From positions 18,355,309 through 18,419,308 of the forward strand of contig NC_081387.1 of the NCBI RefSeq assembly GCF_030684315.1: 64,000 nt of DNA, given 5' to 3'. Below, piece after piece: positions 3,137 through 61,440 of the stretch. The position numbers and the translations under genes are program-made. The notes beneath the pieces are model-generated. The model ran no database searches. It saw only the letters and a program-made list of their open reading frames with translations, and had not been told where the DNA came from. Each line of letters begins with the position of its first letter. Within the stretch, counting starts at the first letter, position 1. The DNA is from Stegostoma tigrinum. Its lineage: Eukaryota.

Positions 3137-4043
3137 CAAACCTGATAACTGTGCTGATTCTATGCCAAGGGAAGTGCGGCCTATCCAAAGGAATCACTCG
3201 CTACATGATGGCCATGGCAATGGGAGACCTCATGGTACTTATCTTCAATGTGATTGTGAGCCAGGTTGTCGGGTATCATTTCCCGAGCCCCCTGCTGAGT
3301 AACACTCCTGCTTGCCGATTCAGTGTTTTCCTGCAAGGGCTCAGCCTCCAGCTCTCCATCTGGTTTACCATATTCTTCACCTTTGACAGTTTCGTAGCAA
3401 TTTGCTGCCACAGATTGAAGGCGAGGTATTGCTCTGAAAGAACGGCCAATGTAGTCATATTCATCGTGAGCGCTCTTAACATTATAGTAAACATGCCCTT
3501 GTCTTTTCGCTATGAGCCTGCTTACATTCTGAACAATATCCAGTGGGGTTGTCGTACTATTACTGGTTACCTGACTTCACCGGCTTGGGAGTTCACCGCT
3601 GGCTCACCAATATCTCAAACATGTTTCTCCCTATTCCCCTGCTGCTGCTGTTGACTTCTCTCACTGCCCGGCACATCCTAGTGGCCAGCAGAGCTCGCCG
3701 AGTCCTGAAGCGCAGCAGGAGTGGTGTTTCTGGGAAGATGGGCAAAGACCCCGAGCTGAAGAGCAGGAGGACTTCTATCATTCTGCTCTTCTCCATCTCA
3801 GGCTGCTTTGTGTTGATGTCGGCACCCATCACTGTCATTCACATCTGTGTCGGTGTCACTCAGACAGTGGCTTTCCAAGGTGCAAGCTCAATCTATTTGG
3901 TAATCAGGGTGACGTTCCTGCTGATGTGCACCAGCTCCTGCACAAACACATGTATTTACGCAATGACCCAGAAGAGATTCAGGGAGGAGATGAAGAATGT
4001 GCTGAAATCTCCCTATTCTCTGCTCTGTACGCTCTGTAAATAA
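3137..4043 (+). pseudogene. GPR139-like: GPR139-like orphan GPCR copy 1, exon 2; 1-nt frameshift near 3589; exon 1 upstream of window
   Basis: Acceptor ttttcag at 3136; ANLITVLILCQGKCGLSKGITRYM..AMGDL, FDSFVAICC, SSCTNTCIYAMTQKRFREE; ORFs 3115-3654 and 3543-4043 overlap in different frames (TGG G-A GTT CAC vs TGG GCA GCT CAC in paralogs). Confidence 0.85.
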
Positions 4044-4055
4044 CTTCCACTTGCA

Positions 4056-4397
4056 GGGGGAGGTGGTGAACTAATGATAACCTCACTGGGCAGGTAAACC
4101 AGAGCCCAAAGCTGACACAGATAGCAGACACAGTTTCAAATTGCACCATTGCAATAAATGGATTTTTCCTTCCATAAAAAAATAGCATCATGGTGACCGT
4201 GTCACGATTCGTGGTTGTAAAGCCATAACTTTAATTTTAGGAAGAATGTCTTTTGGCATGAGTTCTGCCATCTTTACCTGCTCAGTGCTACATGTAACAT
4301 CAAACCCACAGCCATGTGGTTGCCTCTTCACTACCCTCTGGGCAATAAATGCCAACCTAGCCAGTGATTTTCACACTCCCAAATGAACAAAATAAAA
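4056..4397 (+). mobile_element. Ancient tRNA-derived SINE (MER131-like) directly after the stop codon
   Basis: ggaggtggtg head, cccacagccatgtggttg core, gggcaataaatgcc..gccag tail; contains AATAAA at 4153 and 4344. Confidence 0.6.
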
Positions 4398-5479
4398 AGG
4401 CACTAATAAGAAGCCACTGCAATTGTACAGTGTTTTTTTGGCTTTGTGAAACTCTCAGTGCAAGATGTCTTAATGGTTTGGAAGAATTTATTTGGTTTCT
4501 GAAAGAAGTTGATGAAGTTAAAGTCAGTGAATATGTACGGGATATAAATGAAGTGATAAGGATCATGTTATGCAGCAATAGTGTTCCTACCTCTGATCCT
4601 GAAGATCTGACTTACACACCTACATTTGCACAGATTCCTTATATCACAACTGACCAGGTTGGTCCAAGTATCTAGAACATAGAACTTTACAGCACAGGAT
4701 AGGTCCCTTAAGTTCATGATCTTGTACCAAACTTGACGCCAAATGAAACTAATCACTTCTGCCTGCCGTCAATCCATATCCCTCCATTCCTTGAGTATTG
4801 ACGTACTTATCTAAAAGCCCCTGAAATGCCCCGATTGTATCTGCCTCCACCACCACCCCGGTGGTGCATTCCAGACTCCTACAACTCTCTCTGTCATGTA
4901 TGTGCCCATGGCATCTCTTTTGACCTTCCCCATATATAGTCAATCTACACCAGACATTAGCAACATCACAATTGCAGAGTTCGGTGTTATTCTGGGCATC
5001 AAATTAGCAGTTTGGGGAAAATGTTGAAGGTACTGAAGAGATTCGTTGCGATAATACCAGATGCACATCCCTGTAATTATGAAGCAGAATGTGACACATT
5101 GAGTTTCTTTTCATTCTGAATCAATGAGATTGAACAGTTAGAGGCAGTTCCAGTGATGAAGGGTTGCCTCGGGTTGAATAAGAACAATCATTTATTGATC
5201 TAGATGCAGTGGATGTCAACATCAAGGTAACGTGGAAGGACTTCCTTTGGCTGACTGAAAGTGTGAGATTGACTGCCAGAGTTACTGAAAGTTGAAAGAT
5301 GCCGCCCCAGGAGCCTTGCTCAGTTGTTGCAGTGCATCTTGTAGATGGGACACATCGCAGCATATCAATGTTTGTGTTAGAAGAAATGCATTTCAAATGT
5401 TTTAGATTGTGCATCAATACATCCAAAGAATCAGCCCAAGCCTGAATATGGTCCAGATCTTGTCACACATGGACATGGA

Positions 5480-6245
5480 GTGGACAATGGAGTTTAATTC
5501 AGATAAATTCATGTTTATGAGACAGACCAAGGTGGGCTGTGCACTGAATGGTAGGGCCTGGAGAGTGTTGCTGAACAGAGAGACCTGGATATGCAAGTAT
5601 GTCGATTCAGGAAAACGGTGTCATGAGAAGACAAGTTGGTATAGAAGGCATTCGGCATGTATGACTTCATCGGTCAGAACAATGAGTACAATATTTGAGA
5701 CAGCATGTTGCAGCTGTACAGGACATCAGTATAGTCACATCTGGAGCATACCATACAGCTCATGTCACCCTGCTATTGGTATGGTATTCTTAAAATGGAA
5801 ATGGTGCTGAACAGATTTAAAAGGAGTGCTTGAGTTCGAAGAAGCAGTTGGATAGGCTGGGACATAAGAAAACTGAGGGGTGACCTTATAGAAGTTTAAG
5901 AAATAATGAGAAGCACAGATGAGGTCAACTGACAATGTCTTTTTCCCAGGGTATGAGACTCCACAGCTAGATGGCATATGCTTAAGATGACAGAGGAACG
6001 ATGGGCAACTTTCTAGCACAGCGGATTGTGCAACTGTGCAACAAGCCTAAAAGGCAGGGTTAGAGGTGAATACTCTAAAAACCATTTAAATGATTTTTGT
6101 AATGGCACATGAATGGAAAGGTTTTCGAGGAATATGAGCCAATTACACACAAATGAGAATAGTTCAGATGAGGAAACTAGTTATCATCGATGGGTTGGAG
6201 TTAATGGTCTTTTCCAGTGCTGTGTGATGCTATGATTGTATGATT
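5480..6245 (+). mobile_element. Old CR1 LINE 3' fragment
   Basis: WTMEFNSDK; agggtgaccttatagaagttt; tatgatt tail. Confidence 0.7.
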
Positions 6246-7592: not shown

Positions 7593-8073
7593 AGGCCTTC
7601 TCTGATAAGCAGTAGCAGATTTAAGGCAGAGATGAGGAAAAACATTCTGACGATAAGGTACATGAACTGTGCAATGTGTGCTCGATTCTGCAACATTATG
7701 TAAGATTACGAGGAGACAGACAGATTGTTTAATTAGAAATGTTAAAATAGGGTTAAAGTGTTACCCCTGGTTTGTAAGATGAAAAGCAAAATTCGCTGAC
7801 TCGAATGGATTCTATTAGAAGATCATTCTGAATTTCAGCACAAAAGTGGCTCCTTCCAGAAATTTATTGTAAAATGAAAAAAAAAATTAAATGTACACAG
7901 GAATGTGAGAGGAGCTATGATAACTTGAAACTTCTGCTGGCAGCCACATTTGCTGTTAGGAAATTCAAATTTTGAGAAACTATTAAAAAAAAGACTGCTG
8001 ATGCCAGGAAAAAATGATGGGAGTGTCAGTTTCTTGTGAGAACATGAGATGGAGATTGAACATACGAACATAC

Positions 8074-9143
8074 ATAGAACATAGAACATAGAACATAGAA
8101 CAGTACAGCACAGAACAGGCCCTTCAGCCCACAATGTTGTGCCGACCATTGATCCTCATGGATGCACCCTCAAATTTCTGTGACCATATGCATGTCCAGC
8201 AGTCTCTTAAATGACCCCAATGACCTTGCTTCCACAACTGCTGCCGGCAACGCATTCCATGCTCTCACAACTCTCTGCGTAAAGAACCTGCCTCTGACAT
8301 CCCCTCTATACTTTCCACCAACCAGCTTAAAACTATGACCCCTCGTGCTAGCCATTTCTGCCCTGGGAAATAGTCTCTGGCTATCGACTCTATCTATGCC
8401 TCTCATTATCTTGTATACCTCAATTAGGTCCCCTCTCCTCCTCCTTTTCTCCAATGAAAAGAGACCGAGCTCAGTCAACCTCTCTTCATAAGATAAGCCC
8501 TCCAGTCCAGGCAGCATCCTGGTAAACCTCCTCTGAACCCTCTCCAAAGCATCCACATCTTTCCTATAATAGGGCGCCCAGAACTGGACGCAGTATTCCA
8601 AGTGCGGTCTAACCAAAGTTTTATAGAGCTGCAACAAGATCTCACGACTCTTAAACTCAATCCCCCTGTTAATGAAAGCCAAAACACCATATGCTTTCTT
8701 AACAACCCTGTCCACTTGGGTGGCCATTTTAAGGGATCTATGTATCTGCACACCAAGATCCCTCTGTTCCTCCACGCTGCCAAGAATCCTATCCTTAATC
8801 CTGTACTCAGCTTTCAAATTCGACCTTCCAAAATGCATCACTTCGCATTTATCCAGGTTGAACTCCATCTGCCACCTCTCAGCCCATCTCTGCATCCTGT
8901 CAATGTCCCGCTGCAGCCTACAACAGCCCTCTACACTGTCAACGACACCTCCGACCTTTGTGTCGTCTGCAAACTTGCTGACCCATCCTTCAATTCCCTC
9001 GTCCAAGTCATTAATAAAAATTACAAACAGTAGAGGCCCAAGGACAGAGCCCTGTGGAACCCCACTCACCACTGACTTCCAGGCAGAATATTTTCCTTAC
9101 TTCCAGGCAGAATATTTTCCTTACTTCCAGGCAGAATATTTTC
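8074..9143 (-). mobile_element. Young 5'-truncated CR1 LINE (RT C-terminal ORF 8170-9072, 300 aa uninterrupted)
   Basis: GVPQGSVLGPLLF, KFADDTK, RPHLEYCVQFW motifs; (CATAGAA)n tail at 8074-8100; near-identical to 17245-18390. Confidence 0.95.
9075..9143. repeat. 24-bp tandem repeat x2.9 (ACTTCCAGGCAGAATATTTTCCTT) at the CR1 5' junction
   Basis: Units at 9075-9098, 9099-9122 and 9123-9143. Confidence 0.9.
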
Positions 9144-10407: not shown

Positions 10408-10471
10408 ATGGGATTACAGGCACTTCCGATGGAAATTATTTTTCCCATTCTTGCAATCTTTGGAATTCCTG
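10408..10471 (+). pseudogene. GPR139-like: GPR139-like copy 2 exon 1 (MGLQALPMEIIFPILAIFGIP)
   Basis: ATG at 10408, G|gtaag donor, phase 1 joins exon 2 at 13920 to give GIP-ANL. Confidence 0.85.
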
Positions 10472-12780: not shown

Positions 12781-12782
12781 TT

Positions 12783-12925
12783 AGCTATTTCTGCTTTCAC
12801 CTGAAAGGGCACCACAAGCACTTGTGACAGAAATTCTTGATCCCATCCTTGTGATCCTTGAAATTCCTGCTCAGTGGATCAAAGCTGTTGTAACATTCTT
12901 CTTCACTGTTTTGTTTTCAAATGTT
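12783..12925 (+). other. Shadow exon 1 duplicate in intron of copy 2
   Basis: ctgctttcacctgaaagggcaccacaagcacttgtgacagaaattcttgatcccatccttgtgatccttgaaattcctg; CR1 sequence on both sides. Confidence 0.7.
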
Positions 12926-13919: not shown

Positions 13920-14827
13920 CGAACCTGATGACAATGTTGATTCTTTCTCAAGAGAAGTGCGGACTTTCCAGAGGAATCACTCGTTATATGACTGCCATGG
14001 CAACATGAGATCTGATGGTCATTGTCTTCAATGTGATTGTGAGCCAAATCATTAATTATCATTTCCCGAGCTCGCTGCTGAACTACACTCCTGTCTGCAG
14101 ACTCAGTGCTTTCCTGCAAGGGCTGAGCATCCAACTCTCCACCTGGTTTACCACAGCCTTCACCTTTGACCGCTTTGTAGCAATTTGCCTCAACAAATTA
14201 AAGATGAGATATTGCACTGAAAGAATGGCCAACGTGGTCATATGCACCATAACTGTGCTTATCATTTTGGTCAACATTCCCTTGTCTTTTCGCTACAAAT
14301 CCACTTACATTCTTAACAAAGTGCAGTGGGGCTGCCAGACCATTACTGGTTACCTGACTTCACCGATTTGGGCTGCTCATCGGTGGGTGACCAGTTTCTC
14401 AAGCACATTTCTTCCTATTCCCCTGTTCCTGTTGTTGAATTCTCTTACTGCCCGGCACATCCTAGTAGCCAACAGAGCTCGCCGAGCCCTGAAGAGTAGC
14501 AGCAGTGATGGCGTTGGGAAGCTGAGCAGCGACCATGAACTGAAGAGTAGGAGGACCTCCATTGTTTTGCTTTTCACCATCTCTGGGAGCTTTGTAGTGC
14601 TGTCGGTGCCCATCTCTGTCATCCACATTTGTGTCGGCTTCACCAGCCTTCTGGCTTACCAAGGTTCAACCTCATTCTCTTTGGCACTTAGGGCAACGTT
14701 CCTGCTGATGTGCACCAGCTCCTGCACAAACACTTGTATTTACACACTGACCCAAAGGAGATTCAGAGAGGAGATGAAGAATCTGGTGAAATCTCCCTAT
14801 TCTCTGCTGCGTAAGCTACACAAATAA
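13920..14827 (+). pseudogene. GPR139-like: GPR139-like copy 2 exon 2; one premature TGA at 14006-14008, otherwise full length (323 codons spliced)
   Basis: Acceptor ttttcag at 13919; ..AMAT*DLMV.. (GGA or GCA at this codon in paralogs); FDRFVAIC; NTCIY; ORF 14015-14827. Confidence 0.85.
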
Positions 14828-14839
14828 TTTATATTTGCC

Positions 14840-16379: not shown

Positions 16380-18650
16380 GAGTGTGACTGTCTTTGACAT
16401 CAAGGCCAGCCAGATTTGTCCATATATAACATGAAGGCGTCTGAGCTAAACTTGACTAAATAGGACTTGGTGTCAGCAACACTCTGCTGGTTGGAGTCCT
16501 GCTTGGTACACTGGAAAAGAGTTGTGGTTGTTGGAAGCCAGTCATTTCAGCTCTAGTACATTACTCCAGGTGTTCCTTGGGATTGTGTGGTTGGATTATA
16601 AATTATTCCATCAATGATCCTCCCTTCATCTTTTGGTCAGAAGATGTGGTGAACACTGATGATTGCACAAAATTCAGTTCCATTCATGACTCTGCAGATT
16701 CATTCGTAGCCCATGTTCGAATGCAACAAGATCTCTACGATATCAGGATTGGGTTGACAAGAAGTTACTACATTTGTGCCAAATAAATGTCAGGCAATGA
16801 TCATCACCAGTAAGAGAGAAAATGCTATCCCTTGGCATTCCATAATATTACCATCACTGAATCCCCAGTATCAATGTCCTAGAGGTTACCACTGGCCATA
16901 AATTCAACTGGACTCAAGTTATAATTACATACACACAGTGGCTACAAGAGCAGGTCAGAGACTAGAAAAAAACTGTGGCAAGAAACGAATCTCCTATTTT
17001 TCCCAAATTCAGTTCACTTTCTTTAAGGCTTGAGTCAGGGGGATGGCTGAGTTTCCCCAGTTGCCTCAGTCAGTGCAGCTCCATTAATGCTCAAGAAGGT
17101 CAAAGTGTCCAGCATAAAACAACCCTCTTAACTGACATCACATCCACAAGCATCCATTTCGTCCACTGGCGCAAAATAACAGTAGTGTGTACTATCACGC
17201 TCTTTAGAAATTCATCGAAGATCCAGAGAGAATGCTTTATGAAAACATAGAACATAGAACATAGAACATAGAACAGTACAGCACAGAACAGGCCCTTCAG
17301 CCCACAATGTTGTGCCGACCATTGATCCTCATGGATGCACCCTCAAATTTCTGTGACCATATGCATGTCCAGCAGTCTCTTAAATGACCCCAATGACCTT
17401 GCTTCCACAACTGCTGCTGGCAACGCATTCCATGCTCTCACAACTCTCTGCGTAAAGAACCTGCCTCTGACATCCCCTCTATACTTTCCACCAACCAGCT
17501 TAAAACTATGACCCCTCGTGCTAGCCATTTCTGCCCTGGGAAATAGTCTCTGGCTATCGACTCTATCTATGCCTCTCATTATCTTGTATACCTCAATTAG
17601 GTCCCCTCTCCTCCTCCTTTTCTCCAATGAAAAGAGACCGAGCTCAGTCAACCTCTCTTCATAAGATAAGCCCTCCAGTCCAGGCAGCATCCTGGTAAAC
17701 CTCCTCTGAACCCTCTCCAAAGCATCCACATCTTTCCTATAATAGGGCGCCCAGAACTGGACGCAGTATTCCAAGTGCGGTCTAACCAAAGTTTTATAGA
17801 GCTGCAACAAGATCTCACGACTCTTAAACTCAATCCCCCTGTTAATGAAAGCCAAAACACCATATGCTTTCTTAACAACCCTGTCCACTTGGGTGGCCAT
17901 TTTAAGGGATCTATGTATCTGCACACCAAGATCCCTCTGTTCCTCCACGCTGCCAAGAATCCTATCCTTAATCCTGTACTCAGCTTTCAAATTCGACCTT
18001 CCAAAATGCATCACCTCGCATTTATCCAGGTTGAACTCCATCTGCCACCTCTCAGCCCATCTCTGCATCCTGTCAATGTCCCGCTGCAGCCTACAACAGC
18101 CCTCTACACTGTCAACGACACCTCCGACCTTGGTGTCGTCTGCAAACTTGCTGACCCATCCTTCAATTCCCTCGTCCAAGTCATTAATAAAAATTACAAA
18201 CAGTAGAGGCCCAAGGACAGAGCCCTGTGGAACCCCACTCACCACTAACTTCCAGGCAGAATATTTTCCTTCTACTACCACTCGCTGTCTTCTGTTGGCC
18301 AGCCAATTCTGTATCCAAGCAGCTAAGTTCCCCTGTATCCCATTCCTCCTGACCTTCTGAATGAGCCTTCCATGGGGAACCTTATCAAATCAACATGACC
18401 TCTTCCATCTCGAAGGACAAGTATAGACCATACAAAGTAAAACCACCATGTGCAATTTCCCCTGTAAGCCACTCGCCATCCTGATTGGGAAATATATCAC
18501 AGTGCCTTCAGTGTTGCTGGATCAAAATCTTGGAATTCCCTATCTCATGTCCAGAGAATGCAACAGTTTGAGCAGGCAGATAATCATAATATACTTCGGG
18601 GTAGGTAAGAAATGGTAATTAATTCTGGGCTAGCTATTCACCCTCAGAAA
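16380..18650 (+). mobile_element. Old non-LTR LINE 3' part (CR1/L2-group), split by the young CR1 at 17245-18390
   Basis: Degenerate RT (INDPP..TDDCTKF..MQQDL); sequence resumes at 18391; 3' tail resembles the SINE tail. Confidence 0.65.
17245..18390 (-). mobile_element. Young 5'-truncated CR1 LINE (ORF 17343-18281, 312 aa)
   Basis: Protein matches ORF 8170-9072 over their shared length; (CATAGAA)n tail. Confidence 0.95.
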
Positions 18651-19595: not shown

Positions 19596-21249
19596 TTAAA
19601 ATAATTTCAACAGTAGTACTTCAATGTGTACTAGTTTGATAGTTATGAATGAAAATGTCGTCGGCAAGATGTGTCCTTTTTTACAGCCATAGTCTATATA
19701 CCACCAAGGGACAATTTCAATCATTTTCTTTGTAAAGCACCAGAACAGCACCAAAGTTCTCGAGAACCTGGTCAAAGATTTGTAGCCGATAAATGTGGCA
19801 AGAGGGGTAAATGTGGCAGATGCTGTCATTTAAATTCAATAAACGTCTACCCTAATTGCACCAATTTCACTATTTCTGAATGAAGTAGAGCCCATTTGGT
19901 TCACAGAATCCTTTTGGTACCCGGCGTGGCCGACATACACCTCCATACTGACAGCAGTATGGGTGATTCTAAAATGGCCTCGCAAGTCAGTCAGCACATG
20001 AGCATTTAGGGAGATGCAATGAATCTGAGCCAGCCAGCATCCCACAAAAGAATAAAATAAATATTCCAGGAGTTTGTCTCCATTGTACCAGCATTAGATT
20101 TACCCAGTTTATACGTGAATTATACTCACCCAATGTTATTGCATCCCCTTTGTTACATGCACCTCTCGTATCCTAACTAATATCTTTTCCAAACTGTCAC
20201 TGCTGTTTTGTGTTCTAGAAGCAGCCCTAATCAATTATTGTCACCTTTTGTAGTTTATTACAGTTCATGCTGTTCATCTTTACCCAAAGATACTCAGTTT
20301 CAAATTTTGGTCACCCTGCAGCCATGACTCCATTATGGCAATCTGATCATATCTATTTATTCTGTGCACGTCATCAATTCACCTTCATTGTTGCAAATGT
20401 CGCTTGATCCCTCAATGATCATTACTCCCTAATTTTACCCAACTGATGGTTTAATGCCCTTCAAGAAAGACGTTAGAATCATAGATTCAAACAGCATGGA
20501 AACAGGCCTCTTAGTCCAACCTACCCATGCCGACTATGATCCCAAGCTGTGCCAGTCCCAAGTGACTGCACTTGGCCGATTCCTCTAAATATTTCTTATT
20601 CATGTAATTATCTAAATGCCTTTTAAACATCACAAATACATCTGCTGGATGATCATTCCACACACATGATGTTCACTGTCTCTCAAAATCCCAAAGTTGA
20701 TCTTGAAAATGATGAAAGCCTTGAGGCTCTTGATTGAGGTGTGGATTGGACTGAGTTAGAGATCTGAGTTGCGGAGTTAAATTCTCATGGCAGATACTAG
20801 GAAGAATGGGTTTCGAAGGATTTGTTGGTGAAGCCAGTGTTTACTGTATATTCTACCAACATTTGGACTCCAGACCTACTGAAAGTCTTGACTGTGATAT
20901 GGATGACAGAATGGAAATCAACTGATGCATTCTCATGATCCACTGGGAACATAAGATGATATTCAGTTTTGTACTCCTGGGCCATCACAATGTTAACGTT
21001 TCATCGAATAACTAAAAAGCCCTCAATTTACATTTCTGATAACCTCAGGAAAATGGGAAACACCAACCAGCTTGTTCTGGGGCAAACATCTTAAAGGGAG
21101 CATTTAAGCAAACAGGTCACCAGATAGCTTGTCAAATCACTTTACTTCAGTCGCATGGTTTTTCAAAATTGTGTTTTCACTGAATGAGAAAGAACATCTT
21201 TTTCTGATGCTTACTAAAAACAAGTCATCTGTGATATCATCCCGACAAT

Positions 21250-21490
21250 GCAGAAGCAGGCCATTTGAGTCTACAACCAACCCTGTGAAGAGCATCCTAC
21301 CCTAGACAAAATGGGCATTTTATCATAGCCAATCCACCAAACCTGCAATTCTTTGGACTGTAGGAGGATGCTGGAGCACGCAGAGGAAATCCATGCAGGC
21401 GCTGGGTGAACATGCAAACTCCAGAAAGACAGTCACCCGAAGGTGGAATTGAACCCAGGTCCCTGGCGCTGTGAGCCTGCAGTACCAACA
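21250..21490 (-). mobile_element. HE1-like SINE
   Basis: aattgaacccaggtccctggcgctgtgag; catgcaaactcc. Confidence 0.7.
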
Positions 21491-21819
21491 ACAGCAGCTT
21501 TTTGCTTCTCACAATGAAAACCAAAACTCAATGTTCCCGCATATTAGTATTGCTTAATAAACATTAATCACAGGCTCAAAACAAGCCTGTATCTTGATAT
21601 GAAATAGGTTGTTTCAAAGGTCATCCAATATGTGTCCAGAACTTCGAATGCCATCAATCTATTGCCGCTGACAGTTTTCTCACAATTTGTGAAGGATAAG
21701 CGTAATTTCACAAATGTTCTTATAATGAAGGAAACCATGCCTCTGTGCAGTGTATAATTGCAAGATACATCCTTATAAATGAAATGTATAATTTGTAGCT
21801 TCAAAGAACCGGACTTGTT

Positions 21820-22335
21820 CCTTTCTTCTTTCATTTGTTCATTTGTTTGTTCCTTCCTTCTCCTCCCCCTTTCTTCCTTGGTATTTGCCATCCTTCTTCC
21901 TCTCTTCCTTCCTTCTTCCCTCCCACCATCTTCCCTCCTCCCATTCCTCAATTCCTTCTTTGCTTTCTCTCTTTGTTCGTTCCTTCATTCCTTCCTTCTT
22001 TAGCCCCTTCCTTCTTCCATCCTTTCTTTCTCTCTTTGCTCTTTCCTTCCTTACTTTCTCTCTTTGATCCTTACTTCCTCTCTTCCTTCCTTCTTTCCTT
22101 TCTCTCTTCCTTCTTTCCTTCCCCATTACTTCCCTTCTCTTTTCATTGTTACCTTCCCTCCATTCCCCCTTCGGTCAGGAACTCCTTCTTTCCTTCCTTG
22201 CTTCTTCTCTCGCTTTCTCTCTCTTTTTTTGCTTCATCTCAGTCTTCCCCTCTTTGCACCCCTCTCACTTTCTTCCTGTTTCATTTTCTCTGTCCCTCAA
22301 TCGTTCCCTCTTTCAGTCAGTCTTTTTTGCTCTCG
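21820..22335. repeat. Polypyrimidine (CCTT/CTTT)n low-complexity tract
   Basis: About 500 nt almost entirely C/T. Confidence 0.9.
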
Positions 22336-22598
22336 CACCACAGATGCTGACTGACCTGATATGTGTTGATGATCATTTCTGTCGTTATTTCAGATTCTCC
22401 TGAAATCTGCTTTTGTCGAAATTCAGCTAATCTGGGAGCCTCAATGTCTTGATTGCCTCCTGAAATAACTGCTTGAAGAATCTAATATGTGACACCAGTT
22501 GATTTTTTTTTCTTTTTTGGTCACCTGACATGTGTTGTAAATCTGTTTTCTGAATTGTTTGTAACAAGAGTCAAACCAACTGCATAAGTGATTGTATC

Positions 22599-35493: not shown

Positions 35494-35557
35494 ATGGGAT
35501 CACAAGGCCTTCCAATAGAAATTCTTTACCCCATTCTTGCAATCTTTGGAATTCCTG
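35494..35557 (+). CDS. GPR139-like: GPR139-like copy 3 exon 1 (MGSQGLPIEILYPILAIFGIP); intact although its exon 2 is dead
   Basis: ATG at 35494, G|gtaag donor at 35558, conserved upstream block. Confidence 0.75.
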
Positions 35558-37918: not shown

Positions 37919-39285
37919 CCAACCTGATGACAGTGTTGATTCTTTTCCAAGCTAAGTGAGGACTTTCCAAAGTGTCGAAGGATTATTAGAGTGCCAATTG
38001 AAATAAGTTGTAGAATGTAGTTTAAGCTTAAAATTAGAGGTTGGAATGATGGCGAAATAAGTCATGTCAGAGATATGCGACAAATTGTTGCCCATCTGTA
38101 GAAAGCTTAGAACCTGTTGTTCAATGTTGAACCAAAGCCCTGGACATGTTCTGCTTAAAGATAACGTGTCAGCAACTGCAAATGTGGAGTCATGATGTAT
38201 AACATGGCATGGGGCCTTCCTTAAGGGGATGTGTTGAACTGTGTACATGCTTATCTGCTTACAACAACTGTGTCAAACTATAACATCACATATATGTATT
38301 GCCTTGTTTTTGTACTCGGGGGGACTACTGGCCCAAACTTTTGTTGGTCCGCATGATAACACGAATAAAGCCTCTTTACCTCCAAGCCTAAAGATCCAGT
38401 GGGTGATTCAATTAATATCTTCGTCACAAAGGAGTAACTTGCTGCATGAGGGCCATGGCAATGGCAGGTCTAATGGTTCTTGTCTCCAATGGAATTGGAG
38501 GCCAAAGCATCAGGCATCATTTCCCAGGCTCGCCTTTGAGCTACACTGCCACCTGCTGACTCGATGCCTTCCTGGACGGACTGAGCCTTCAAGTCTCCAT
38601 CTGCTTCGCCAGAGGCTTCACTTTTGACTGCCTTTTTTGCAATTTACTGCAACAGATTGAAGGCGTGACATTGCATTAAAAGAACAGCCATCCTTGTCAT
38701 CTCCATTGTGAGCGCTCTGAATATTTTGGTCAACTTTCCCTTACCTTTTCTTTCCGAACCCTGTTGCATTGTGAATAATGTACAGTGGGGCTCCCGCATC
38801 GTTGCTGATTATCACACTTCCAGTCTGGGCAACTCATCGGTTGTTCAACAACATCTCAAACACGTTTCTGCCTATTTCACTGCTGTTTCTATTGAATTGT
38901 CTCATTATCTGGCACATTCTAGTAGCCAACAGAACACGTCAGGCCGTGAAATGCAGCAGCAGTGGGACTGGAGAGACAGGGAGATATCCCGAATAGAAGA
39001 GTAGGAAGGCCACCATCATTCTGCTCTTTGTCATCTCCAGCTACTTCGTGGTACTGTCGATGCCCATCATTATCCTTCACATCTGTCTTGGCTTTACTCA
39101 AGTGGTTGATTACTGAAGCTCAAACTCGCTCTACGGACCATTCAGGGCAACGTCCCCGCTGTGTCGAACCAGCACCTGCACAAACACTTGCATTTACGCA
39201 CTGTTCCAGAGGAGATGCAGACAGGGGATGAAGAATGTGGTGAAATCTCGCTATTCTCTGCTCTGTAAACTAACTCAATATTTGA
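37919..39285 (+). pseudogene. GPR139-like: GPR139-like copy 3 exon 2, heavily degraded (stops, frameshifts, LTR insertion)
   Basis: Acceptor at 37918; ANLMTVLILFQAK*GLSK; homology resumes at 38427; ISNTFLPISLLFLLNCL..HILVANR. Confidence 0.85.
37973..38426 (+). mobile_element. Solo LTR (454 bp, TG..CA ends, 5-bp TSD CAAAG)
   Basis: TSD at 37968-37972 and 38427-38431; imperfect terminal inverted repeat TGTCGAAG/CTTCGTCA; AATAAA at 38364. Confidence 0.75.
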
Positions 39286-40320: not shown

Positions 40321-41202
40321 ATATTGTTATGATTGTCAGACGGTACATCCTCCCAACCAATGCCACCAGCAGTTGGTCAGAGCAAGAGCTGTCCCCTTAT
40401 CAGCTGAATCCTCAGCTACAGCTGTCCTCCAGACAACAACAAGCACGAGCAAGGTTCACGTTGTCACAGGTGCTCGAACTCACCGAGCAAACAGTAACAT
40501 GTTGCTGCATGAAATGATTTCTCGTTCATCGAAACAAGAAGCAGCTATTCAGACGAGTTGCAGCTTTTCATTCTTGATGGAACTTCTTGGCAACGGGACA
40601 GTGAGTCTTTGAAGTTAAATTGTTGGGGTGTCATACCAGGAGCATTAGTACTAGGAGCAGGAGGAGGCCAAACAGCCCCTTCTGCCAGTTCTGCCATTTA
40701 ATGGAATTGTTTTTGATCTCATCTCAACCTCAACTCCACTTTCCTGCCCATTCTCTTCGACTTTCAACCCGTTACTCATGATAAATTGGTTTATCTCTTT
40801 CCTATATTCACTCAATGTCCTTTGCACAGATTCATGGCACTTGGAGAGAATTATTTCCTCCTCATTTCTTTTTTAAATTTGCTTGTCCCTGAACCTGAAA
40901 CATTGGCTTCTGATTCTAGACTGTCGCAGCATGAGGAAACATCATCTCTATGTTTACTTTGTCAATCCATCCTGCACTCAGAAGTTCTTCACATGGATTT
41001 CCTCTCATTCTCTCTCAACTTTGTTCAGGACGGGCTGAAAATGCTCAACCTGCCCTCAGAAGACAAACCTCTCATCTCTCATCTCTCAAATCAATCCAGT
41101 GAATCTCCTCTAAACTCCATCCAATGCAACTCCATCCCTCCTACAGCTAGAGACCCAAAACTGTACAGAATACTGCAGTGGAAGCTCAATAATGCTTTTT
41201 AC

Positions 41203-42133
41203 TGGATGTGAGTTTGCTCGCTAAGCTGGAAGGTTAGTTTTCAGACGTTTCGTCACCATTCTAGGTAACATCATCAGTGAGCCTCCGACGAAGCGCTGGT
41301 GTTATGTCCCGCTTTCTATTTATCTGGTTAGGTTTCCTTGGGTTGGTGATGTCATTTCCTGTTCTTTTTCACAGGGGATGGTAGATTGATTTGGAGCCAA
41401 TGTGTTTGTTGATGGAATTCCGGTTGGAATGTCATGCTTCGAGGAATTCTCGTGCATGTCTCTGTTTGGCTTGTCCTAGGATGGATGTGTTGTCCCAATC
41501 AAAGTGGTGTCCTCCCTGATCTGTATGTAAGGATACGAGTGATAGTGGGTCATGTCGTTTTGTGGCTCGCTTCCTGCCAGTTTGTCCAATGTCGTGTTTG
41601 TCACAGTTCTTGCAAGGTATTTTGTACATGACGATAACGTCATCTACAAAATACCTTGCAAGAACTGTGACAAACACTACATTGGACAAACTGCCAGGAC
41701 GCTAGCCACCAGGATACATGAACATCAACTAGCCACAAAACGACATGACCCACTATCACTCGTATCCTTACATACAGATAAGGAAGGACACCACTTTGAT
41801 TGGGACAACACACCCATCCTAGGACAAGCCAAACAGAGACATGCACGAGAATTCCTCGAAGCATGGCATTCCAACCGGAACTCCATCAACAAACACATTG
41901 GCTCCAAATCAATCTACCATCCCCTGAGAAAAAGAACAGGAAATGACATCACCAACCCAAGGAAACCTAACCAGATAAATAGAAAGCGGGACATAACACC
42001 AGCCCTTCGTCGGAGGCTCACTGATGATGTTACCTAGAATGGAGACGAAACATCTGAAAACAAACCTTCCAGCTCAGCGAGCAAACTCACATCCAGAACC
42101 TCAACCTGAGCTACAAATCTTCTCAAAACTCGC
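41203..42133. mobile_element. Palindromic Penelope (Poseidon-type) element: arms 41203-41633 and 41638-42095, 13-bp TSD
   Basis: TSD TAATGCTTTTTAC at 41190-41202 and 42134-42146; VIYKIPCKNCDKHYIGQT..RIHEH..REFLEAWH GIY-YIG. Confidence 0.9.
41244..41277 (-). ncRNA. Hammerhead ribozyme core in Poseidon-type pLTR (partner at 42021-42054 on + has GAAACATC)
   Basis: Minus strand: tca-CTGATGA-tGTTACCtagaatGGTGAC-GAAAC-GTC-tga. Confidence 0.7.
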
Positions 42134-45441: not shown

Positions 45442-45444
45442 AAA

Positions 45445-46775
45445 ACCGTGAATGATTTAAGTCCTCTCTCCATCCCTCAAGAAGGAATATTCAAAAAACT
45501 AATGCGGCTAAAGGCCCTGATCTAAAAAAAAGAGACAGATCCAGGGATACTGGATATATTGACTGTAATTTACTAAAATCCTTGGATTGTGAAGAACTAC
45601 CAGATGCTTGGAAAATCGACAATATGACACTGCTTTTCCAAAAGCAAGTGATGCAAAACATGGGTTAGTACCTCGATTGTCGAAAATATATTGGAATCAA
45701 TTGTTAAAGATGAGATCGTGTGTCATTTGGAAACGATTAATCTTATCAAGCAGAGTCAGCCCAGGCCCATGAAAGGAAAATTGTGACTGCCTAACTTAAA
45801 GGAAAATTTGAAGGATATCTCAACTGGAATGGACAGAGTGAAATCAGTAGACGTGTTTTAATTAGGCTTTGAGAAGGTGTTCACAGAAGGTTGAGTCATA
45901 AGAGCCCATGCTGTTGGACGTAACTTATTGGTCTGGATAGAGAATTTTCCAATGGCTTGGAGACAGTCAGTATTGATAAGGTATTCATTTACAGCATAGC
46001 CATCCATGGCCTTTGAGGTTCCACAGGGATCAGTGCTGGAATTGCTACTGGTTGTTATAAATATTATCAACCTGGAGAAAAGAAATAAATGTACTGGAGC
46101 CAAATTTGCAAATGGCACCAAACACAGGTGGAAAAGCAGATTCTGCTCCTTCGATGCTGCTTGGCCTGCTGTGTTAATCCAGCTCAACACCTTGTTATCT
46201 CTTGTGAGAAGGTACAGCGGTTTACAGAGAAATATTGAAAGGTGAAGTGAAACATTGTCAAAAGTCGTGTGGTTAAATGTCACATTGTTCATTTTGGAAG
46301 GTAGATCAAAAGAACAGTTTTACTTAAACAGAAAACAAAGGCTGCAGAAATCTGGAAAACTAAGGGAGTTAAGGTATTTTGTACGAAACAGAGAAAGCAA
46401 GCACAAAGCTGCAGCTAGCAACCAAGAAGACTTATGGAATGTTGATACGTCTTTCAAGAGGATTGGAATATCAGTTTATGGAAGTCTTATTGCAACTGTC
46501 CATGGTGATGGTACAACCACACTTGAAGTATTGTGCGCAGTTTTGGCCTGCTATTGAGGAAAAGAAAAAAAATAATAAAATCTTCGAACACAATTCAGAC
46601 AAGGAGCATCAGGATGATCGCACATTTGGAGGGACTGTCTGATGAGCAAAAAATCAACAGATTGGGACTCTACTCACTGGAGTGTAGGAGAATGAGAGGT
46701 GACCTCATTGAGACATATTGGATTCTTTTGGGGCTTGACCAGGTAATTGCTGGACGAAGATTCCCCTCATGCGTG
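45445..46775 (+). mobile_element. Old CR1 remnants in intron of copy 4
   Basis: VPQGSVL; PHLKYCAQFW; colinear with 58215-59430. Confidence 0.75.
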
Positions 46776-46778
46776 TGC

Positions 46779-46915
46779 TTTGGCTGTTTCTGCTTTCAAC
46801 AGAAAATGGGACCACCAGCAGCTCAAAGAGAAATTCTCCTTCCCATCATTGTAATCCTCGAAATTTCTGAAAGAAAAAGCTTTTGTGACATTTTCTTGCC
46901 TGTTCTGTTCTGAAA
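46779..46915 (+). other. Shadow exon 1 in intron of copy 4 (ATG 46806, MGPPAAQREILLPIIVILEIS, no GT donor)
   Basis: 64-nt open frame 46806-46869 homologous to exon 1, followed by aaag instead of gtaag. Confidence 0.75.
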
Positions 46916-47863
46916 TGTCCAAGAGAGAATAATCATAAAGGAGTAATGAATTAATTCTGAGATGAGGAGGAATTTGTTTTCTCAGTGGGTTGTGAATGTT
47001 TGAAGCTCCTTGCCACAGACAGAGCTGTGAAGGCAGAATCCTCATTGATATTTAACACTGAGGAGGACAGATTCTTGATGGCAGCGGCAGAAATTTTAGA
47101 CATTTCAAAATGACAACATTTTTGACAGAAGTTAGCCATAGAAGAGGAGAATCGGAACATCGGACTGAAAAGCAGGAATAGGCCAGTTGGCCGTTTGAAC
47201 ACCTCCCATCTTTCAGGAGGATCATGGCTGATCTGACAAATCGCCACTTTTCTTCGTGCATTTCATCACCCTTGAATCCCATGTGTATCCAAAATGTATT
47301 AAACTCAATTTTCGAGATTCAGCTGCCACGATGTTGAAGGGAAGAGCGTTCCATGTACTTAACACCCTCTTAGGGAATAAAAATCTCCTTATCTCTGTTT
47401 GAAATGGCAAATTGCTTGTTCCTAAACTGTGCCCTCTAGTTATAATCTTCACCTCAAGAGAACTCCACCTTATCCACTTTGTCCAGTGCCCTCAAGATCT
47501 TAAATACTTCAATGCGATGACTTCACATCCTCTTGGACTCAAATGAATTTAGGCATAACTTTTCTTCACCAAACAAGGCATGATTCCCAGGGGTGAGGCA
47601 GGTAATTTTTTTCTGTTCTGCTTCTAAATTAGAAAAAAAGTGTTGTCCTAAAATATTGAAACCGCGCAGTGCAAAATCACCTTCCAATTAATTCCACAAA
47701 ACAGACAATGCGTTGCCAATAAGCTGGCACTGTCTTTCATTGTTGTGCAAATCTAAAATTATCAACAGCTTCCAAATGTCTTGCAATTCCTGACCGTATC
47801 CATGCACATATCTACTGAGCGTTTGGTACATCTCATGATCTGCCTTTTTTCTTTATTTTTCAG

Positions 47864-48771
47864 CGAACCTGATGACAGTGTTGATTCTTTCTCGAGGTAA
47901 TTGTGGCCTTTCCCACGGAATCACTTGCTACATGAAGGCCATGGCAACGGCAAATCTGATGGTCCTTGTCTTCACTGTGCTTGTGAGCCAGATCATCAGG
48001 AATCATTTCCCAGGCTCACCGCTGAACTACACTCCCATCTGCCAACTCAATATTTTCCTGCAAGGGCTGAGCCTCCATCTCACCGTCTGGTTCACCATAA
48101 CCTTCACCTTTGACCGTTTTGTAGCAATTTGCTGCCACAAATTGAAGGCGAGATATTGCACTGAAAGAATGGCCAATGTGGTCATATCCACTGTGACCGT
48201 GGTTAACATTATAATCAACATTCCCTTACCTTTTCGCTATGAGGCTGCTTATGTTGTGAACAGTGTGCAGTGGGGCTGCCGCACCATCACCAGTTATCAC
48301 ACTTCACCGGGCTGGGCAGCTCACCGGTGGGTCAGCAACATCTCAAACTCGTTTGTTCCTATTCCCCTGCTCCTGTTGATGAATTCTCTCACCACCCAGC
48401 ACATCCTAATGGCCAGCAGAGCTCGGCGAGCCCTGAAGAGCAGCAGCAGTGCTGGTGCTGTGAAGATGGGCATTGACCCCGAGTTGAAGAGCAGGAAGAC
48501 CTCCATCGTTCTACTCTTTACCATTTCTGGATGCTTTGTGATACTTTCGGCGCCCATCACTGTGATTGATATGTGTGTCGGTGTCACCCCGACAATGGCT
48601 GTCCAAGATTCGAACTCACTCTACTTGGCAATCAGGGTGACATTCCTGATGATGTGCTTCAGCTCCTGCACAAACACGTGTATTTACGCACTGACCCAGA
48701 GGAGATTCAGAGAAGAGATGAAGAATCTGGCAAAATCTCCCTCTTCTCTGCTCTGTAAGCTACATAAATAA
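47864..48771 (+). CDS. GPR139-like: GPR139-like orphan GPCR copy 4, exon 2 intact (own exon 1 not found)
   Basis: Acceptor tttttcag at 47863; open 908 nt; FDRFVAICC, WGC, NTCIYALTQRRFREE. Confidence 0.85.
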
Positions 48772-48784
48772 GTTACATTTACCG

Positions 48785-51050: not shown

Positions 51051-51052
51051 TC

Positions 51053-53617: not shown

Positions 53618-54868
53618 AGAGATAATGGGAACTGCAGATGCTCGAGAATTCCAAGATAATAAAATGTGAGGCTGGATGAACACAGCAGGCCAAGCAGCAT
53701 CTCAGGAGCACAAAAGTTGACGTTTTGGGCCTAGACCCTTCACCAGAGAGGGGGATGGGGAGAGGGAACTGGAATAAATAGGGAGAGACGGGGAGGCGGA
53801 CCGAAGATGGAGAGTAAAGAAGATAGGTGGAGAGACTATAGGTGGTGAGGTAGGGAGGGGATAGGTCAGTCCAGGGAAGATGGACAGGTCAAGGAGGTGG
53901 GATGAGGTTAGTAGGTAGATGGGGGTGCGGCTTGGGGTGGGAGGAAGGGATGGGTGAGAGGAAGAACCGGTTAGGGAGGCAGAGACAGGTTGGACTGGTT
54001 TTGGGATGCAGTGGGTGGGGGGGAAGAGCTGGGCTGGTTGTGTGGTGCAGTGGGGGGAGGGGACGAACTGGGCTGGTTTAGGGATGCAGTAGGGGAAGGG
54101 GAGATTTTGAAACTGGCGAAGTCCACATTGACACCATATGGTTGCAGGGTTCCCAGGCGGAATATGAGTTGCTGTTCCTGCAACTTCGGGTGGCATCATT
54201 GTTGCACTGCAGGAGGCCCATGATGGACATGTCATCTAGAGAATGGGAGTGGGAGTGGAAATGGTTTGCGACTGGGAGGTGCAGTTGTTTGTTGCGAACT
54301 GAGCGGAGGTGTTCTGCAAAGCGGTCCCCAAGCCTCCGCTTGGTTTCCCCAATGTAGAAGAAGTCGCACTGGGTACAGTGGATGCAGTATCCCACATTGG
54401 CAGATGTGCAGGTGAACCTCTGCTTAATGTGGAATGTCATCTTGGGGCCTGGGATAGGGGTGAGGGAGGAGGTGTGGGGACAAGTGTAACATTTCCTGGG
54501 GTTGCAGGGGAAGGTGCTGGGTGTGGTGGGGTTGGAGGGCAGTGTGGAGCGAGCAAGGTAGTCACGGAGAGAGTGGTCTCTCCGGAAAGCAGACAGGGGT
54601 GGGGATGGAAAAATGTCTAGGGTGGTGGGGTCGGATTGTAAATGGCGGAAGTGTCGGAGGATGATGCGTTGTATCCGGAGGTTGGTAGGGTGGTGTGTGA
54701 GAACGAGGGGAAACCTCTTAGGGCGGTTGTGGCGGGGGCGGGGTGTGAGGGATGTGTTGCGGGAAACATGGGAGTCCCGGTCAAGGGCGTTCTCGATCAC
54801 TGTGGGGTGAAATTTGCGGTGCTTAAAGAACTTGGACATCTGGGATGTGTGGGAGTGGAATGTCTTAT
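53618..54868 (-). mobile_element. Young Penelope-like 3' part (GIY-YIG ORF 54078-54839 plus pLTR)
   Basis: VGYCIHCTQCDFFYIGETKRRLGDRFAEH; terminus matches 28571-28699. Confidence 0.9.
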
Positions 54869-57859: not shown

Positions 57860-57923
57860 ATGGCACCTGGGGCACTTCCAATAGAAATTCTCTTTCCCAT
57901 TCTTGCAATCTTTGGAATTCCTG
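57860..57923 (+). CDS. GPR139-like: GPR139-like copy 5 exon 1 (MAPGALPIEILFPILAIFGIP)
   Basis: aaaATGG start context, G|gtaag donor, phase 1. Confidence 0.9.
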
Positions 57924-58099
57924 GTAAGTTGGTAACAGCCGCTTTGACATTTTTCTTGCCTGTTCGGTTTTGAATTGAGTCTCTGCAATTTGGACCTACT
58001 CCAACCAAATGAATCTCCTCCTTGTTATTGAGTTTGTCTGCTCTTCATTACTGCTAGTTTCAGTTTGAGAGCAATTCCTCCTGCCTGGGTTAGAAACGA

Positions 58100-59430
58100 C
58101 TGTGCTTCACCTTAATGAAGAATACATGAAAATGACAGAGGACTGAAACAGATATTTTACATCATTCCTTACGATGGATGACACTTTGAGCATGTTACCA
58201 TTGCTACAGAGTATGGTGGATTATTTAAGTCCTATCTCCATTGCTGAAGAAGGAATATTTGAAAAATTATTGGAGCTAAAGAAAAATATGTTCCTGGGTC
58301 TGATCCAAAAAGAGATACAGAATGCTTTGGCTGTAATTTACTCAAATACATGGGTTGTGGAGAATTACCAGAGGTTTGGAAAACTGAAAATGTGACACTG
58401 CCATTCCAAAAGAAACGAAGGCAAAACATGGGTTATTATATCGATTGTTGAAAATACATTGGAATCAATTCGTAAAGATGAGATCGCGTACCGTTTGGAA
58501 AATTTTAATCACATCAGGCAGAGTCAGCTGAGCTCCATGAAAGGAAAATTGTGAGTGGCAAATTTATTGCAAAACGTAGCCTCATCGAGATGGAAAGAGG
58601 GAAATCAGTAGATGTGTTTTAATTGGGATTTGCGAATGAGTTCAACAGTGTCCCTCACAGAAGGTGGAGTCATAACAGTCAATGTTCTTGGAGGTAGATT
58701 ATTGGTTAGGATGGAGAATGGTCCAAGAGACAGCGAGAGTTGATGCTGTATTCATTTGTAGTTTTGTCATCCATGATCTGTGGGATACCACAGGGATCAG
58801 TGTTGAGATTGCTACTGTTTACAGTATATATTCACAACTTGGAGGAAGAAATGAATGTACTGCAGCTAAATTTGCAGATGACATCTAAGCATAGTTGGAA
58901 AAGTAGATTGTGGGAAGGTACAATGTTTTGCAGAAAGATATTGATAGGGTAAACAAATCATTGTCAAATGGAGAGTAATGTGGAAACATGTCATGTTGTT
59001 CATTTTGGAGGGTAGAACAAAAGGACAGAGTTTTATATGAACAGAAAAAATCTACAGAAAGCTGGAAGACAAATTGAGTTGAGGTACTTGCACATGAAAC
59101 ATCGAAAGCTAGCACAAAGGTGCAACCAGTCGCTTGGCAGGGTCACGGAATATTGGTCCATATTTCAAACCATATGTTACACCGCTGGGGTACTGTGTGC
59201 AGTTTTCGTCCTGTTATTGAGGAAAAGAAAAAAACTACATCAGAAGCTATTCAGACAAGGAGCATCAGCATGATCAAGTGTGGAGGAACTGTGTTATGAG
59301 CAAAAATTAAAAGATTGGGTCTCTTCTCACAGGAATGTAGAAGATTGAGAGTTGACCTTATTGAAACATATTGGATTCTTAAGGAGCTTGACCAGTAAAT
59401 GGTGGAGGATCATTCCCTTCATGGGAGTTC
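58100..59430 (+). mobile_element. Old CR1 remnants in intron of copy 5
   Basis: GIPQGSVL; KFADDI. Confidence 0.75.
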
Positions 59431-59570
59431 TTTGGCTGTTTCTGCGTTCCCCTGAAAATGGGACCACAACCTGTTCTAATAGAAATTCTAACAGAAATTC
59501 TCCTTCCCACCATTGTAATCCTTGAAATTCCTGATTAAACCTGTTGTGATATTTTTCTTGCATGTTCAGT
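59431..59570 (+). other. Shadow exon 1 in intron of copy 5 (ATG 59458, in-frame 12-nt duplication, no donor)
   Basis: MGPQPVLIEILTEILLPTIVILEIP followed by G|att. Confidence 0.75.
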
Positions 59571-60496
59571 CACGAAGTGTCCCTGAGAGAGTAATCAAAC
59601 AGTAAAGGAATGATGAATTAATTCTGAGATTAGGAGGAATTTGTTCCCTCAGTGGGTTGTGTGTTTGGAACTTTTTTCCACAGACAGAGCTGTGGAGGCA
59701 GAATCCTCTTTATGTTTCACACTGAGACACACAGATTCTCGATGGCAGTGGCAGACGTTTCAGACATTTCAAAATGACAACTTTTTTGATGGAAGTAAAC
59801 CACAGAAGAGGAGAATGGGAACATATGAATGAGAAGCTGGAATGGGCCAATTGGCGCTTTGAACTGCTTCCACCTTTCAGAGGGACCATGGTTTGAGTGA
59901 TCTCCACTGTCCTGCCTGCATTCCATTGCCCTTGAATCCCTTGTGTGTCGAAAATGTATCTAACTCACTCTTCTAGATTCAGCCACAACTATGTGTTGGG
60001 GGAGAGGATCCATATAATAACCAACTTCTGAGAGAGTAAAAATCTCCTTATCTCTATTTGAAATGGGAAACTGCTTATTCCTAAACTGTGTCCTCAATTT
60101 TAATCTCCTCACTCAAAAGAAAACCATTTCCACGTGTTCCACATTATCCAGTTCCCTCAAGATCTTAAAGGTTTCAATGAGATCACCTCACATCCTTCTG
60201 AATTCGAATGGATACAGGCATAAACTTTCTTCACAAAACAAGATCGTAATCAACTTGTGAGACAGGTAAATCTTCTCTGATCTGTTTCTGAATGAGAAAG
60301 AAAACGTTCTCTTGAAGTTTGGAGACCAAGCAGTGCAAAATCACCTTCTAATTAATCCCACAATACAGACAATGTGTTGCTGATGGCACGATGTTTCGTT
60401 GTTATACAAGCCTCGAATGACCAGCAGCATCTCAGAGACTTGCAATTACTGACCTCATCTGTGCACATATCGACTGATTGTTCTTTCTGTCTTCAG

Positions 60497-61440
60497 CGAA
60501 TCTGATGACACTGTTGGTTCTTTCTCAAGAGAAGTGTGGCCTTTCCCGAGGAATCACTTGCTACATGAGGGCCATGGCAATCGCAGATTTAATGGTACTT
60601 GTCTTCAACGTGATTGTGAATGAGATCATCGTGAATCATTTCCCAGACACGCTGATGAAATACACTTCCATGTGCCAACTCAATGCTTTCCTGCAAGGGC
60701 TGAGCCTTCAGCTCGCCATCTGGTTCACCACAGCCTTCACCTTTGACCGCTCTGTAGCAATTTGCTGCCACAGATTGAAGGCGAGATATTGCACTGAAAG
60801 AACGGCCAATGTGGTCATATCCACTGTGAGCGTGCTTAACATTATAATCAACATTCCCTTACCTTTTCGCTGTGAGGCTGCTTATGTTGTGAACAGTGTA
60901 CAGTGGGGCTGCCACACCATCACCAGTTATCACACTTCACCAGGCTGGGCAGCTCACCAGTGGGTCACCAACATCTCAAACATGTTTCTTCCTATTCCCC
61001 TGCTACTGTTGTTGAATTCTCTCACTGCGCAGCACATCCTAGTGGCCAGCAGAGCTCGCCGAGCCCTGAAGAGCAGCATCAGCAGTGGTGGTTCTGGGAA
61101 GTTGGGCAGTGACCCCGAGCTGAATAGCAGGAGGACGTCCATCATTCTGCTCTTCACCATCTCTGGGTGCTTCGTGGTGCTGTCGATGCCCATCACTGTG
61201 ATCCATATCTGTGTCGGTGTCACCCAGACAGTGGCATTTGAAGGATCAAACTCACTCTATTTGGCAATCAGGGCGACAATTCTGATGATGTGTACCAGCT
61301 CCTGCAAAAACACATGTGTTTATGCATTGACCCAGAGGAGATTCAGAGAGGAAATGAAGAAACTGGTCAAATCTCCCTGTTCTATTCTCTGTAAGCTAAA
61401 TATGCAATTTTCATTTACGGAGAAGTTGATGGTGTCATGA
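60497..61440 (+). CDS. GPR139-like: GPR139-like orphan GPCR copy 5 exon 2; spliced CDS 64+944 nt = 335 aa, intact
   Basis: Acceptor cttcag at 60496; AMAIADL, FDRSVAICC, WGC, NTCVYALTQRRFREE; seven hydrophobic segments when joined to exon 1. Confidence 0.9.

Follow-up and report, generated by a model that had tools for sequence, protein, structure and literature searches.

What family of receptors is represented by the tandem genes in a 64,000-nt stretch of the zebra shark genome, and what could such a cluster be for? The stretch, called the window throughout, is taken from contig NC_081387.1 of the Stegostoma tigrinum assembly GCF_030684315.1 (positions 18,355,309 to 18,419,308, forward strand). 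A preliminary description of its sequence had proposed five same-strand, two-exon paralogues of an orphan receptor of the G-protein coupled class (GPCR) similar to GPR139, belonging to a lineage-specific, possibly chemosensory or immune family. The five paralogues were confirmed by a six-frame scan and tblastn of the 64-kb window and by Pfam, and their exon-2 copies, designated U1 to U5, all lie on the + strand. The window is most readily explained as a tandem array of five genes, only one of them unbroken, from a large chondrichthyan family of class A GPCRs that may form a repertoire of the chemosensory type, a reading for which the sequence evidence gives a little less than an even chance.

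A search with exon 2 of U4 returned 625 protein clusters (90% identity) at E<=0.001. Among the best 120 of the 625, 117 were named and came without exception from 18 species of sharks and rays, two were unnamed and one was the window's own; Heptranchias perlo contributed 33 of these clusters, Heterodontus francisci 21 and Pristiophorus japonicus 16, and the label was mostly 'probable G-protein coupled receptor 139'. A 30-member profile run against 1.84 billion representatives gave 141 matches at E<=1e-30. Thirty representatives or relatives were looked up; one of them belonged to the chimaera Callorhinchus milii, and the named non-chondrichthyans were a salamander, Xenopus, a sturgeon, the coelacanth, two teleosts, a crocodile, amphioxus and Aplysia. 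In a word-limited search with the salamander protein as query, the 25 matches consisted of 20 amphibian clusters (20 species, 66-74% identical to the query), one sturgeon protein (46%) and four shark or ray proteins (32-33%). One cluster per species would fit a conserved gene that is apparently single-copy in amphibians. Databases already contain the genes of the shark and ray family, since their proteins sit in public annotation under automatic names. These names are inconsistent (melatonin, opioid, vasopressin V2, C5a, capa or cephalotocin receptor-like), and may have hidden the expansion and may mislead gene counts.

In a maximum-likelihood tree of 42 rows, the 28 elasmobranch rows formed one clade (95/80 for bootstrap and the Shimodaira-Hasegawa-like approximate likelihood ratio test, SH-aLRT), sister to the amphibian and sturgeon receptor (99/96). 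The coelacanth/teleost and amphioxus genes fell outside the shark plus amphibian group, the tree being rooted on four rows, one from Aplysia and three unnamed, with the protostome rows placed outside the chordate group. When the chimaera was included in a tree of 34 rows, it was nested inside the family (17-row clade, 95/96), support for the family was 97/93 and for the sister grouping 98/97, and an elasmobranch-only clade was rejected (approximately unbiased test, p-AU 0.026). Both the 42-row and the 34-row sets were subsets of our choosing, and U3 was excluded from every tree. In a quick tree of 85 rows, the four window copies fell into a clade of 18 rows, all of them carpet-shark proteins (SH-aLRT 99), itself nested in a subfamily of 34 rows with both shark and ray members. 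The nearest named relatives were zebra shark proteins, and each of the four window copies paired with one of them (P0001, P0002, P0010 and P0020; 79-94% identical); these four lie on a contig as long as that of the window's own protein, which suggests a block duplication nearby. Because the chimaera nests inside the family and a carpet-shark-only clade is present, the expansion likely began before the shark-chimaera split and continued in the carpet sharks. As judged from these trees, the family is chondrichthyan-wide, chimaera included, and so not as narrowly lineage-specific as first proposed; what is confined to the carpet sharks is a nested bloom, which holds the window copies. The phylogeny recommended earlier was obtained with an amphibian/sturgeon receptor as sister and with no GPR139 or GPR142 row, no usable protein of either kind being present among the matches to the family profile, the salamander query and an amphioxus query.

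U5, in which exons 1 and 2 together encode 335 aa, is the sole full reading frame in the window. The stages of decay described before were found again in the premature stop of U2, the frameshift of U1, the missing exon 1 of U4 and the degraded exon 2 of U3, all lesions being called from the assembly sequence alone, so that the stop of U2 and the frameshift of U1 may be assembly errors. The exception was U5, which had been taken as intact: it deviates at 7 of 87 near-invariant columns, against one in its closest partner P0002 and a median of 2 in 51 annotated members, and may therefore be decaying too; the columns were defined by these 51 members, which the comparison thus favours. The five departures of U4 at conserved columns are all common to P0001. 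The ratio of nonsynonymous to synonymous substitutions (dN/dS, Nei-Gojobori) for all 10 window pairs was 0.31-0.60 (bootstrap 95% intervals ending at 0.44-0.91); for U4/U5 it was 0.60 (0.40-0.91), with a dS of 0.21 that agrees with the intron distance of 0.23. Purifying selection acted on the window copies during most of their history. Tandem paralogues, pseudogenes, lineage blooms and purifying selection together indicate a birth-and-death multigene family, and in this respect the proposal of an expanded and uncharacterised family with birth-and-death turnover was upheld.

Duplication involved whole units. Exon 1 was located in three of the five copies (U2, U3 and U5) by homologue N-termini and blastn, and in each it runs for 64 nt from the ATG to a phase-1 GTAAGT donor. 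The shared architecture claimed earlier is correct to this extent; exon 2 measures 908 nt in U2 and U4, 907 nt in U1 and 944 nt in U5 (Table 1). The introns measure 3448 nt in U2, 2361 nt in U3 and 2573 nt in U5. Exon 1 of U4 is deleted, since the homology between U4 and U5 begins only ~290 nt beyond the exon-1 donor position; exon 1 of U1 is expected outside the stretch, ~400 nt upstream of the window start. Unit-to-unit homology spans introns and flanks, and therefore whole units were duplicated as DNA.

The proteins are class A (rhodopsin-like) GPCRs. Pfam 7tm_1 matched four of the five receptor stretches submitted (the C-terminal half of U1 alone gave no match), and the AlphaFold model of the close paralogue P0002 (mean predicted local distance difference test score 86.8) shows seven transmembrane (TM) helices and helix 8. 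Foldseek matched this model to many class A receptors with TM-scores of ~0.7-0.77, and is uninformative on the family because GPR139 ranked only 12th among near-equal matches. Membership in the olfactory receptors (OR), V1R, V2R and T2R was rejected, the shark proteins matching 7tm_1 alone in Pfam; so was membership in TAAR, with Q rather than D at 3.32 in the four window copies other than U3 and no amine receptor among 25 profile matches, and in srw, with PF10324 matched by none of six proteins. The norm across the 120 homologues is DRF (R3.50 in 120, F3.51 in 117). The DSF of U1 and the DRS of U5, listed beside it in the preliminary description, are private substitutions of decaying copies and were rejected as family motifs. 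The LSxP motif proved to be a subfamily trait: of the 52 closest homologues 29 have S6.48, and all 68 others have W6.48. The cysteines reported in TM3 and extracellular loop 2 (ECL2) were both present in the 52 closest homologues, in 20 of 20 amphibian sequences and in seven other relatives; among the 68 wider members the TM3 Cys was found in 62 and the ECL2 Cys in 60.

The relation to GPR139 itself needs care. Among solved structures, human GPR139 matched the family profile best (2e-24, with the runner-up at 2.2e-15), which accounts for the label used in databases. On the same profile it scored 89 bits, against 243 for the salamander protein, 217 for the coelacanth, 148 for amphioxus and 122 for Aplysia. 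The match of U4 to GPR139 spans TM1-TM4 only (E 4.8e-9), and the P0002 model is 18% identical to it in the structure alignment. GPR139 is like the window family in its two exons (PMC7318219), the lack of Pro at the NPxxY position and the TM1-TM3 signature. It differs in having D at 3.25 and no ECL2 Cys in the alignment, whereas the window copies have both cysteines, and in being a conserved gene (70% human-zebrafish; PMC7318219) rather than an expanded family. Its Trp/Phe pocket requires F109, H187, W241 and N271 (PMC5430874), and R244 lies near the pocket (PMC7318219). With the GPR139 numbering counted on the profile-structure alignment, the four window copies examined (U1, U2, U4 and U5; U3 excluded) carry G at 3.33, T/S at 5x43, S at 6.48 and F/I at 7x38. 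All 20 amphibian orthologues have F3.33, Q5x43, W6.48, N7x38 and K6.51, that is, three of the four key GPR139 pocket residues and a basic 6.51. Among the 68 wider members, positions 3.32, 3.33, 5x43, 6.51 and 7x38 each hold at least six residue types. Identity as a GPR139 orthologue was rejected on the replaced pocket residues, the TM3/ECL2 Cys pair that GPR139 lacks, and the low identity, and the window genes are probably not orthologues of it. As their pocket residues differ, the window copies would be unlikely to sense aromatic amino acids as GPR139 does. The amphibian sister gene may do so, and the amphibian/sturgeon orphan (P0208, P0275-P0294) is a candidate amino-acid or peptide receptor. 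The earlier term 'GPR139-like' is apt for the best solved-structure match, but the closest relatives are the amphibian/sturgeon orphans.

Class A receptors bind their ligands in the outer half. Mean column identity was lower in the outer than in the inner half both among the 68 wider members (0.41 vs 0.69) and among 23 carpet-shark members (0.74 vs 0.83), and this order was reversed in the 20 amphibian orthologues (0.85 vs 0.77), the halves being divided by the helix limits of a predicted model and the alignment columns not being independent. A repertoire for many ligands would look like this, constant on the signalling face and changing on the ligand face, though the pattern is silent on tissue. 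We envisage that one receptor of the jawed-vertebrate ancestor, its pocket like that of GPR139, underwent repeated duplication, in all probability through unequal crossing-over, with an onset before the shark-chimaera split; that the copies retained the signalling side and altered the pocket; and that the carpet sharks had a bloom of their own, of which the window would be a decaying part. The members would likely differ in the outside peptides or amino-acid-like molecules that they bind, and would likely signal through the shared G-protein face. A chemosensory role is favoured because of the size and turnover of the family and because of its neighbours in language-model space, which include srw-bearing, FMRFamide-receptor-like and mollusc 'Chemosensory receptor A' clusters. 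Clustered, lineage-specific rhodopsin-type families show expression in Aplysia's chemosensory organs (PMC2700072), and srw derives from peptide-receptor-like rhodopsins (PMC3963977).

Several points weigh against this interpretation or soften its basis. The variable outer half would fit any paralogue family with different ligands, immune families included; no positive selection was seen by pairwise counts (outer-half dN/dS among window copies 0.34-0.75); and the Pfam srw profile matched none of the six proteins tested. Family composition is known for the best 120 of the 625 clusters, true GPR139 and GPR142 are in no tree, the group submitted to the approximately unbiased test was picked after an earlier tree had been viewed, and the 85-row tree comes from a quick search, the careful mixture-model search being incomplete. 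Furthermore, the nose of the catshark is reported to be V2R-dominated, with microvillous markers covering the neurons (PMC10116579). This last report would also suit the main alternative, less likely but substantial, that the same expanded family works in immune or barrier surveillance, on leukocytes or mucosa, and senses microbial or damage-derived peptides. Formyl-peptide receptors and MRGPRs in mammals provide the analogue. Clustered birth-and-death and a variable outer half would fit surveillance as well, and recent near-identical duplicates are present, e.g., four catshark proteins of 317 aa that share a contig and a 90% cluster. However, GPR139 is far ahead of the chemokine receptors among solved-structure matches (2e-24 vs 1.5e-14), the language-model neighbours are neuropeptide and chemoreceptor clusters, and the lack of positive selection in the pairwise counts argues in the same direction.

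The genes could also be endogenous neuropeptide or metabolite receptors that divided tissues or ligands after duplication while staying near the ancestral role. The wider clade includes GPR139/142 along with the receptors for MIP, FMRFamide, proctolin and myosuppressin, and a shared origin of GPR139/142 with MIP, FMRFamide and myosuppressin receptors has been described (PMC8514136); the amphibian orthologue retains a GPR139-like pocket, and the 68 wider members keep W6.48 throughout and, for the most part, the two cysteines. We regard this as improbable in view of a single species having 33 distinct clusters or more, the frequent pseudogenes and the highly variable pocket. Known endocrine receptor families are unlike this in size, pseudogene load and pocket variability. 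Little credence is likewise given to largely neutral duplication in repeat-rich shark DNA, with few functional ancestral genes and most copies short-lived passengers. It would account for four of five window copies being broken and the fifth having seven departures at conserved columns, for the richness of the window in long interspersed nuclear element (LINE) and Penelope-like pieces, and for the U4/U5 dN/dS given above; but dN/dS is below 1 in every pairwise comparison, many deep subfamilies are common to sharks and rays, and inner-half motifs are near invariant over 120 proteins. The chemosensory-type repertoire remains the favoured reading. A bolder version of it, which we would sooner doubt than assert, is that of an overlooked chondrichthyan chemoreceptor family of V2R size, derived from a GPR139-like peptide or amino-acid receptor that was left single in amphibians and sturgeon, in parallel with the srw-type route of invertebrates.

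The features of the window are collected in Table 1. Of the two further units described earlier, the one at the window end stands as a unit start without an exon-1 block, while the other amounts only to a patchy copy of a flank.

Table 1. Receptor units and their remnants in the window (positions in nt from the first letter of the window)
Feature	Position	Strand	Remarks
U1 degenerate intronic exon-1 copy	1695..1758	+	ATG absent, GT donor absent
U1 exon 2	3137..4043	+	907 nt; splice acceptor 3137; 1-nt deletion near 3582-3590; R3.50S; likely pseudogene
U2 exon 1	10408..10471	+	64 nt, ATG, GT donor; TATA-like element ~60 nt upstream
U2 degenerate intronic exon-1 copy	12807..12870	+	
U2 exon 2	13920..14827	+	908 nt; splice acceptor 13920; single premature TGA 14006-14008; likely pseudogene
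Patchy 66-81% copy of U3 5' flank, gene-less	19814..22581	+	unit remnant or generic repeat
U3 exon 1, intact	35494..35557	+	64 nt, ATG, GT donor; TATA-like element ~60 nt upstream
U3 exon 2, heavily degraded	37919..39281	+	splice acceptor 37919; ~455-nt insertion, indels, stops at 38557, 38666, 38994, 39114
U4 intron remnant, true exon 1 deleted	45448..47863	+	start of U4-U5 homology; degenerate exon-1 copy at 46806-46869: ATG, no GT donor
U4 exon 2, frame open	47864..48771	+	908 nt; splice acceptor 47864; D2.50N; own exon 1 absent
U5 exon 1	57860..57923	+	64 nt, ATG, GT donor; TATA-like element ~60 nt upstream
U5 degenerate intronic exon-1 copy	59458..59570	+	
U5 exon 2	60497..61440	+	944 nt; splice acceptor 60497; F3.51S, T7.48K, C-terminus extended
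Sixth-unit start	62625..64000	+	84-86% like U3 flank and intron; exon-1 block absent; any exon 2 past window end

A degenerate second copy of exon 1 without a GT donor was present in the intron of four of the five units, ~1.0-1.4 kb 5' of the acceptor, and represents an internal duplication older than the unit duplications; that of U4 (46806) retains its ATG and an open frame. In U3 exon 1 is intact and exon 2 ruined; the adjoining U4 has an open exon 2 and no exon 1. It is speculative that exon 1 of U3 (35494-35557) spliced to exon 2 of U4 (47864-48771) could yield a full frame. At 27173-28657 there is an inverted pair with 740-nt arms, 97% complementary and 5 nt apart, with a weak GIY-YIG match below the Pfam cutoff; these are likely pieces of a Penelope-like element, and a third copy was found at ~53618-54400. 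A second inverted pair at 41202-42096 has 366-nt arms (97%, 163 nt apart) and again a weak GIY-YIG match below the Pfam cutoff. Two minus-strand LINE 3' pieces at 8072-9098 and 17245-18271, which we take to be of the CR1 type, are 99.6% identical and have a reverse transcriptase match and a 7-bp tandem tail, indicative of recent retrotransposition.

Among known systems, the amphibian/sturgeon 'probable GPR139' orphan (XP_031757816 of Xenopus tropicalis, XP_069092602 of Pleurodeles, RXM35349 of the sterlet) is like the shark proteins in its short N-terminus, both cysteines and a similar basic motif before TM6, and unlike them in its conserved pocket, with 25-31% identity to U5. A second GPR139-like lineage outside the mammals, in the coelacanth (XP_005988539), teleosts and a crocodile (P0217, P0227, P0252, P0257), and the amphioxus receptors have the same Cys pair and a similar profile, but their clades are distinct and do not fall within the group of sharks and amphibians. 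That such relatives exist beyond mammals is not a new remark, since 'Orphan 139-like' and 'NMOGPR' are listed beside GPR139/142 as unclear families in Table 1 of PMC5207463; the second lineage and the amphioxus receptors could possibly correspond to these two, the comparison being by names only. The OR, TAAR, V1R and V2R families show the same clustered birth-and-death and many pseudogenes, in unrelated sequence; shark V2Rs number 8-43 complete genes (PMC10116579), compared with at least 33 clusters of the GPR139-like family in Heptranchias perlo. The srw and Aplysia chemoreceptor expansions are near neighbours in the language model, yet the srw profile matched none of six proteins and the trees place the protostome rows, used as root, apart from the chordate ones. 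No description of the shark expansion was found in the literature covered, which mostly excludes subscription papers; the family is not mentioned in the portion of the catshark atlas text at hand (PMC11979771), and in the 24 supplements of the whale shark paper GPR142 has one orthogroup line and GPR139 no entry. The repertoire is large and apparently undescribed: its kind, clustered birth-and-death GPCRs, is known, while its branch, within the reach of the literature covered, is not known to expand so in vertebrates.

As a decaying cluster the window is nothing out of the ordinary, and it is the family that is the point of interest. Cartilaginous fishes have been described as relatively poor in GPCRs (PMC8455134) and as having few olfactory receptors besides V2Rs (PMC10116579), and dozens of members per genome under one automatic label challenge this GPCR-poor picture. 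The amphibian orthologue with its GPR139-like pocket offers a handle for ligand finding in Xenopus. If the family should prove to be an overlooked set of chemoreceptors, it would help to explain the keen chemoreception of sharks despite their very few ORs, TAARs and V1Rs.

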